Assembly (NCBI GenBank): GCA_950096985.1
Contig: CATNBA010000004.1
Coordinates: forward strand, 5,618 to 69,617
DNA length: 64,000 nucleotides
Direction of reading: 5' to 3'
Source: an uncultured Candidatus Melainabacteria bacterium
GTDB taxonomy: Bacteria > Cyanobacteriota > Vampirovibrionia > Gastranaerophilales > Gastranaerophilaceae
Part shown: positions 49,799 to 50,683 of the stretch, piece by piece
How positions within the stretch are numbered: position 1 is the stretch's first letter
How the letters are laid out: each line of letters begins with the position of its first letter
Program-made: the position numbers and the translations under genes
Notes under the pieces: generated by a model
Told to the model about the DNA's origin: nothing
The model's input: the letters and a program-made list of their open reading frames with translations, nothing else
Databases searched by the model: none

Positions 49799-49871
49799 GG
49801 CTTAATTATATAATAAAAACTTGAAAAAGTTAAAAAAATATGATATTTTAAAGAAAAAGGAGATGGAAGTT

Positions 49872-50683
49872 ATGGAAAAAAGGCATAGTAGGAATTTCGG
49901 GGGGGGGGCACTCTAGGTTTTACTCTGGCAGAAATGTTAATCACACTGGGTATAATTGGTGTTGTTGCGGCGATGACGATTCCTGCATTGGTTTCTGAAC
50001 ATAGAGATAAGGTTAGAATAACTAAACTTAAGAAGGCTTATAGTACGCTTTCAAATGCATATATAACAGCAGTTAACCAATTTGGTGAAGTTGATAATTG
50101 GGATTTGCCCGAGTATAGTTATACAAGTCAAGAGTATGCTTCTGCGATAGGTGAAAAGTATACTAAAGTCTTAAATACTAATAAGATTTGTTCTATCAAA
50201 GAGGATTATAAAAAATGTTTTGCAGGAAAGCACAATGTACAATTGGCGCATCGTAAAAACTTTTTGGATGGAAGCGGTGCTTGAGGAGATGATTATTATA
50301 CTTTTATAACAGGTGGTCTGGTATATGGAATTTCACCTTATTTTGAAGATTTATCCAACAATAATCTTCATTATAAAAAATATTACGCAACAATAACTGT
50401 CTATTTAGAACCATATTTACCTTCAGGAAAAGCTAATGTGTATGGTAAAAATGTATTTGCTTTTCTTTTAACAAGTAAAGGTATAATTCCAGCAGGTATG
50501 GGTAATTATTCTAATTATAACAGTAATGTACCTTTTCCGTTTGATATATATTGTGTTGATGACAGCGGAAAATTAAAACGCGGCATGGGCTGTACGGCCT
50601 GGGTGCTCCAAAATCAGAATTTTGATTACTTAAAGTGTCCTGACAAGCTCGGCTGGAATAAAGCATCGAGTTGCAAGGATTAG
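49872..50683 (+). pseudogene. Type IV pilin-like gene, out of frame at a G10 tract and with one in-frame TGA
   Basis: AAGGAG RBS and ATG 49872; G10 at 49899-49908; GFTLAEMLITLGIIGVV needs G11 or G8; TGA 50282-50284, then the same frame stays open to TAG 50683 (CTAWVLQNQNFDYLKCPDKL). Confidence 0.8.
49899..49908 (+). repeat. Poly-G (G10) slippage tract in prepilin leader
   Basis: C-GGGGGGGGGG-C in an AT-rich context. Confidence 0.85.

Follow-up and report, generated by a model that had tools for sequence, protein, structure and literature searches.

The pilin-like gene that sits between proB and alr in the window (the whole 64,000-nt stretch of DNA analysed here) is regarded as belonging to a set of slipped-strand contingency loci that extends through its family in a gut bacterium of the Gastranaerophilales, a reading to which we give a probability of about 0.7. 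Ribosomes would start at an ATG linked to a Shine-Dalgarno (SD) sequence and would translate a short basic leader into a run of G residues, the length of which would set the frame. With ten G (G10), translation would end at the TAG at 49914 and no prepilin would be made; with G11 or G8, the leader would continue through GGGG into TLG↓FTLAE... (arrow, predicted cleavage), a class III signal peptide that should be cleavable by the prepilin peptidase of the genome. Because the tract lies inside the cleavable leader, the mature protein would not be affected by its length.

Every element of the locus named in the first-pass annotation (ribosome-binding site, ATG, G10, TAG, TGA, and end of the frame) was found in the sequence; coordinates are given in Table 1. 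The leader start frame is translated as MEVMEKRHSRNFGGGAL followed by a stop, the downstream (pilin) frame as TLGFTLAEMLITLGIIGVV...GSGA, a stop, GDDYY...SSCKD, and a final stop; the frame one base back from the leader frame reads TLGFTLAEMLITLGIIGVVAAMT... and runs to the TAG at 50681–50683, with one TGA at 50282–50284. The tract is placed 9 codons downstream of the SD-linked ATG at 49872; a second in-frame ATG, at 49863, was judged to be too near the SD. The prepilin N-terminus (TLG↓FTLAEMLITLG; cleavage predicted between Gly 49916–18 and Phe 49919–21) is joined to the leader with G11 or G8 only, and no ATG, GTG, or TTG is present in the pilin frame between the upstream TAG and the Gly-Phe cleavage site, so that a complete prepilin cannot start independently of the tract. 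The earlier proposal that the tract lies within a cleavable prepilin leader and that G11 or G8 restores the frame was supported. Promoter-like sites around the gene were no more numerous than in shuffled sequence. Three more prepilin-type genes, all without a homopolymer, are present in the window near positions 564 (+), 1844 (+), and 22095 (−); the leader of the one near 564, MNSLFNIVNRKPLNHSLTTKYA↓FTLAEV, resembles a tract leader, with the run replaced by AATCGGAAGCCG.

Table 1 Features of the pilin-like locus between proB and alr (positions in the window; SD, Shine-Dalgarno; arrow, predicted cleavage site).
Feature	Position	Strand	Remarks
Promoter-like TTGAAA, 17-nt spacer, TGaTATTTT (upstream TG, extended -10)	49821..49849	+	Consensus match 9/12
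SD AAGGAG, 9 nt 5' of ATG 49872	49857..49862	+	Same SD-ATG layout in paralogues
Leader frame with G10, MEKRHSRNFGGGAL then TAG	49872..49916	+	Stop TAG 49914-49916
G10 homopolymer, putative frame switch (10, OFF; 11 or 8, ON)	49899..49908	+	C on both flanks
Prepilin-like coding frame, TLG↓FTLAEMLITLGIIGVVAAMT...	49910..50683	+	TIGR02532 above cut-off; mature part 254 codons; DUF6613-type pilin-like family
First ATG of pilin frame, Met6 of mature sequence	49934..49936	+	Start taken by gene callers for the OFF form (249 aa, other samples)
In-frame TGA	50282..50284	+	GGA (Gly) in 16/16 other samples
Stop TAG of pilin-like gene; alr next	50681..50683	+	No terminator-like site between

The predicted architecture of the product is pilin-like. 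TIGR02532 was matched with 19.5 bits (cut-off 16.3), Pfam N_methyl with 17.1 bits (under its cut-off of 21.2), and N-terminal matches to GspG and ComGC were weak; the product (TLG↓FTLAEMLITLGIIGVVAAMT) carries the cleavage-methylation motif, G or A before the cleavage site and FxxxE after it, together with a hydrophobic stretch. A protein search gave 5598 relatives at E ≤ 0.001, many with Pfam DUF6613 (PF20318) and some annotated as N_methyl; few carry a name from their source, and those that do are type II secretion system proteins. The AF2 model (61 homologues; pLDDT 87.7) consists of a 46-residue N-terminal helix (residues 5–50) and a beta-rich head; a fold search with this model against the PDB gave no match with E < 1. 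The genome also has a gene for a prepilin peptidase of the A24 type (PF01478, 38.1 bits, above cut-off; 322-aa frame, C2:77156-77509).

The same design is repeated across the genome from which the window derives (G000; 1.65 Mb, 34.3% GC). Runs of at least eight G or C number 51; a length of exactly 10 is by far the commonest, with 38 runs, and lengths of 11 (six runs), 12 (two), 9 (two), and 8 (one) also occur. Among shorter runs there are two of 7 and 19 of 6, and lengths 7–8 are almost missing. Runs of at least 10 were observed 46 times vs. about 0.1 expected from base composition (our own arithmetic). Away from contig ends 49 runs are left, 40 of them in the leaders of prepilin-type genes (FTLAEVLITLGIIGVVAALT), where the coding strand has poly-G in 27 and poly-C in 13 (e.g., MLFNFAVE-C-PPP-QQNARI...). 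Seen from the side of the genes, 40 of the 59 prepilin-type N-termini have a run at most 170 nt upstream; pilin-like paralogues number about 55 in this genome. Tens of such runs are present in all 19 of the same-genus genomes searched, and few or none in other families of the order; pilin-like genes sampled from other Gastranaerophilales species have a tract in about one quarter of cases, with a mode again of 10. MutS1 is encoded in the window's genome, so that loss of MutS does not account for hypermutability, a point against the slipped-strand reading.

Several of the poly-C leaders (C1:64806, C13:29033, C31:11410, C10:21336, C16:17721, and others) have an ATG, GTG, or TTG directly 5' of the run, in frame at C10, and this abutting start is the one taken by gene callers (MPPPQQNARI... 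forms). With a start in that position, a full prepilin might be made from two of the three length classes.

Changes in tract length by slippage at the DNA level are observed at sister loci. At C3:43634, between identical flanks, the tract is G10 (ON) in G000 and G9 (OFF) in both contigs read (L137 and L138, which represent 24 contigs with the same OFF-length protein), and one contig has G13, which is ON with one extra Gly. At C31:11410, C11 was read directly in G000 only; the lengths of the called proteins imply C10 in 34 contigs, C11 in 2, and a further length in one. All eight sister loci that were looked up have at least two called states, and G9 and G8TG alleles are present at the proB-alr site of a third species. 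Contigs C26 (20577 bp) and C31 (16494 bp) of G000 are each exactly 1 nt apart from the deposited contigs with the same genes (20576 and 16493 bp). The called protein starts in these pairs differ as C11 vs. C10 predicts, and the one-base differences suggest either that reads of differing tract length were mixed or that one sample had been assembled more than once. Given the length polymorphism at sister loci, the family behaves as slipped-strand contingency loci.

The locus in the window, in contrast to its paralogues, showed no difference in length between identical flanks: G10 was found in 17 of 17 population consensus sequences (the window and 16 contigs from 16 sequencing runs), and OFF is the majority state of the population in each sample examined. 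At 90% identity, the protein's cluster holds four full-length variants, every one of the OFF length of 249 aa with its start at Met6; the search of the protein collection returned no ON allele and no longer relative above 73% identity, and a pattern scan of JGI metagenomes for other alleles of this locus gave zero matches. Two sister species also have G10 at the same locus, OFF in G015 and ON in G008, the latter because its leader is 64 nt longer. Switching at the window locus would follow from homology of design. The first-pass annotation, which had proposed a contingency locus, named as signs against it an invariant G10 and an absence of simple sequence repeats from other pilin leaders. The first of these was encountered at the window locus and the second is contradicted by 40 other pilin leaders with a tract. 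About 40 paralogues gated by the same device and the length changes at sister loci support the proposal.

Uniform OFF calls would also be expected if the window copy were decaying, that is, if a once-working switch had been fixed at G10 and the gene were drifting neutrally, with the TGA as its first lesion. We consider this quite unlikely. In its favour, the TGA is private to this metagenome-assembled genome (MAG): at its position the 16 other samples, the alleles of which are 98% identical, without exception read GGA (Gly), more distant orthologues carry Gly, Ser, or Ala there, and the window allele differs from the commonest allele at this codon alone. It therefore is a private GGA>TGA nonsense change of this strain or a consensus error, and its accumulation through the OFF state, as proposed at first pass, is an inference; the TGG>TGA origin suggested at first pass, for which orthologues were to be compared for Trp, was rejected on the same grounds. 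Also discarded was a recoded TGA (codes 4 or 25, Sec; Trp or Gly), given the GGA of the orthologues and the behaviour of TGA as an ordinary stop: as had been stated earlier, genome-wide recoding is not indicated, with 151 of 1158 long ORFs (13%) ending in TGA, as do lpdA and alr, and same-frame continuation past TGA at 5%, not above that past TAA or TAG.

Decay is likewise in line with the allele differences within the species, which are all non-synonymous and none synonymous (at most seven in one pair; about eight distinct sites by our own count), and with the absence of a pilin-like gene from the proB-alr site in most of the genus, only the three nearest of 60 species having one. There is no sign of purifying selection on the gene within the species, at counts as few as about eight substitutions, and a pattern of this kind is compatible with a gene rarely exposed to selection, the counts being small; for the same number of substitutions, however, the non-synonymous/synonymous test has low power (p about 0.1 under neutrality, own arithmetic). 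The 249-aa frame, moreover, is intact in 16 of 16 other samples with the tract uninterrupted, dN/dS against the orthologue of the sister species G008 is 0.27, and three species have kept the SD, the ATG, and the leader peptide (leader MKIRHSRNI and MKNRFSPNF in the sister species).

Different pilin bodies are found at the proB-alr site in different species (L108 of G015; L098–L103 of the third species). The end of the G015 gene (...DYLRCPDKLGWNKASSCKD) is nearly the same as that of the window gene, and its middle is unrelated; a 117-aa form with an internal deletion is present in one species, and a different leader in one contig. The sequences suggest cassette-like recombination among paralogues.

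Homopolymers of 10 or more are error-prone, two deposited records have same-gene contigs 1 nt apart, and one added base would turn most tracts ON; true tracts of G11 (ON), undercalled by one throughout, with the TGA as a consensus error, were accordingly considered. Such an artefact is highly improbable: G10 is recovered alike whether the contigs of the 16 independent runs are of Logan, SPAdes-style, or MEGAHIT-style origin, the length distribution recurs in a genome of the genus that consists of one contig, a length of 10 is in frame in paralogues and in the G008 orthologue, with full proteins called in many samples, and G9, G11, G12, and G13 have been assembled as well. For the TGA alone, a consensus error may be the explanation.

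Tract orientation follows replication rather than transcription: poly-G is on the G-rich strand, by the usual rule the leading strand, whichever way the gene points, and genes on the opposite strand have poly-C. In the 12 contigs of G000 with at least two tracts, the plus-strand base is uniform within each contig (chance about 2^-25 if random, own arithmetic), and the tract base agrees with the sign of contig GC skew in 23 of 25 contigs; the window tract is on the plus strand, and its contig has positive GC skew. For the one-contig genome G034 (1,867,336 bp), in which origin and terminus were placed from GC skew only, 39 of 40 tracts of at least 9 follow two arcs that match the GC-skew arcs (plus strand, 1.358 Mb through 0 to 0.239 Mb; minus strand, 0.257 to 1.229 Mb); dnaA, at 544 kb, is away from any switch of polarity. 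The leader segment NARIT, homologous in the two genomes, comes after poly-G in G034 but after poly-C in G000, according to orientation, which indicates that the tract itself is matched to fork direction. Site-specific inversion at a conserved core (shufflon- or vsa-like), suggested by the presence of the core in either orientation with respect to the genes, was dropped as a candidate, because recombination between sites would scramble an orientation that follows the replichore perfectly.

The flanks are tied to the same strand. The consensus TTTC-G10-CAnTT(C/T), from 49 tracts of G000 (49895–49913 in the window), holds for C-type and non-pilin tracts as well if these are read along the G strand; in that orientation the C-type tracts reach -0.45 bits on the G-type weight matrix, vs. 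-20.5 after flipping and -21.8 ± 8.6 after shuffling. Positions -4 to -1 of the runs contain hardly any A, and 29 of 32 tracts of G034 have the form C-G10-C.

The frame of the tracts is biased as well. Exactly one base is lacking for the SD-ATG frame in about 30 of the 40 pilin tracts of G000 and in 27 of the 32 tracts of G034 that are exactly 10 long (75–84%); tracts one base too long are almost absent, and the zero frame stops 1–4 codons past the run. Simple symmetric slippage does not predict this bias, which fits either a mutational toggle from 10 to 11 or an RNA-level +1 event.

If recoding took place at the RNA level, G10 or C10 would be the functional length, one base being added by RNA polymerase or a -1 slippage being made by the ribosome; most family members would be expressed constitutively at a low, fixed level, with changes in DNA length as a by-product. 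The bias just described and the early stop of the zero frame after the run would be accounted for in this way, as would the invariant G10 at the window locus in 17 samples and two sister species and the concentration on exactly 10 (38 of 51 tracts in G000, 32 of 40 in G034). We nevertheless hold RNA-level recoding to be rather unlikely. No significant stimulatory RNA structure was detected near the tract (z -0.32), and the flank motif, since it follows the G strand and not the mRNA strand, cannot act as one RNA signal shared by genes of either orientation; some paralogues, furthermore, are in frame at 10, 11, or 12, and polymorphism that flips the frame is seen directly in DNA. Length held at 10, the one-short bias, G on the leading strand, and strand-tied flanks could together point to a managed system in place of passively slipping repeats, either a replication-coupled, strand-specific toggle from 10 to 11 or family-wide +1 RNA recoding that meters some 40 pilin-like proteins; we put this forward as a speculative and improbable reading.

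Phase variation by homopolymer slippage is textbook knowledge for a few mucosal pathogens. The pilC gene of Neisseria gonorrhoeae and N. meningitidis reportedly has a poly-G tract in the region coding for the signal peptide, as Jonsson et al. are said to have described in 1991. The likeness lies in a G homopolymer in a removable N-terminal region of a pilus-related gene, with one-base ON/OFF changes that leave the mature protein unaltered; pilC is present as one or two loci with a Sec signal, whereas here about 40 paralogous prepilin-like genes each have their own tract, of a length near 10, in a class III (prepilin) leader. The opa genes of Neisseria, about 11 paralogues, have CTCTT repeats in the part that codes for the signal peptide; they are likewise a multigene surface-protein family with a leader repeat in each copy and combinatorial expression, but the repeat is a pentanucleotide and the products are outer-membrane adhesins, in place of a homopolymer and pilin-like proteins.

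The number of tracts is closer to that of Campylobacter, which has 5–81 phase-variable genes with poly-G/C per strain and tract lengths of 9 in 53% and of 10 in 26% (PMC6321876). A peaked length distribution is thus normal for a phasome, the peak being at 9 and 10 there and at 10 here; both are low-GC gut organisms of about 1.6–1.9 Mb with dozens of intragenic poly-G/C tracts, the state of which differs between isolates or samples. The Campylobacter targets are mostly surface-glycan, flagellar-modification, and restriction genes with tracts at varied positions in the ORF, whereas here a single leader module, that of one protein family, holds about 80% of the tracts; the one-short bias and the strict polarity toward the leading strand, both seen here, go unmentioned in the text consulted (PMC6321876). 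In Bifidobacterium breve UCC2003, slippage of intragenic G-tracts gates sortase-dependent pilus clusters, with a majority OFF and an ON subpopulation, as shown by maximum-depth sequencing and in mice (PMC9187656). This, too, is a gut commensal with a pilus switch based on replication slippage in G-tracts (PMC9187656); its pili are of the sortase-dependent Gram-positive type and encoded at two loci, in contrast to the type IV-like prepilins and dozens of loci described here from comparative evidence only. By analogy, the present loci would be a leader-borne repeat switch of the pilC/opa type at the scale of the Campylobacter phasome.

Our literature search found no paper linking Gastranaerophilales or Melainabacteria to phase variation and no description of replication-strand polarity of such tracts. 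Some 40–50 switches in a widespread uncultured lineage of gut commensals, non-photosynthetic relatives of cyanobacteria, would be new, as would a switch set given almost wholly to one family of pilin-like surface proteins. If the slipped-strand reading is true, each cell would show a different subset of filaments, with a bearing on colonisation and on immune or phage evasion, and the annotation of MAGs would be concerned, since gene callers now wrongly render most such genes as ORFs truncated at the N-terminus. The strict polarity of the tracts with respect to replication offers a natural experiment on the influence of fork direction on repeat instability; the polarity rule, the one-short bias, and the strand-tied flanks merit follow-up.

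Tracts are also found in genes of other kinds. Outside the window, the non-pilin tracts of G000 (C8:5788, C1:54058, C27:14132, C9:26060, and C5:25868) lie in or near genes for a group-1 glycosyltransferase of 848 aa, a PRTase-CE protein, an AAA ATPase, and two products of unknown kind; the PRTase-CE gene is split by a C9 run in mid-gene. In G034, the SD-ATG-G10 module (MKKxxxxxI-GGGG-NSLKPSHN...) heads a second family (L162, L167, L170, L174, L175, L177, and others) of 200–230 aa (...FSLIETFNNLALWGEKKFVSELKRTYKFQRGV...), with no prepilin motif near the N-terminus.
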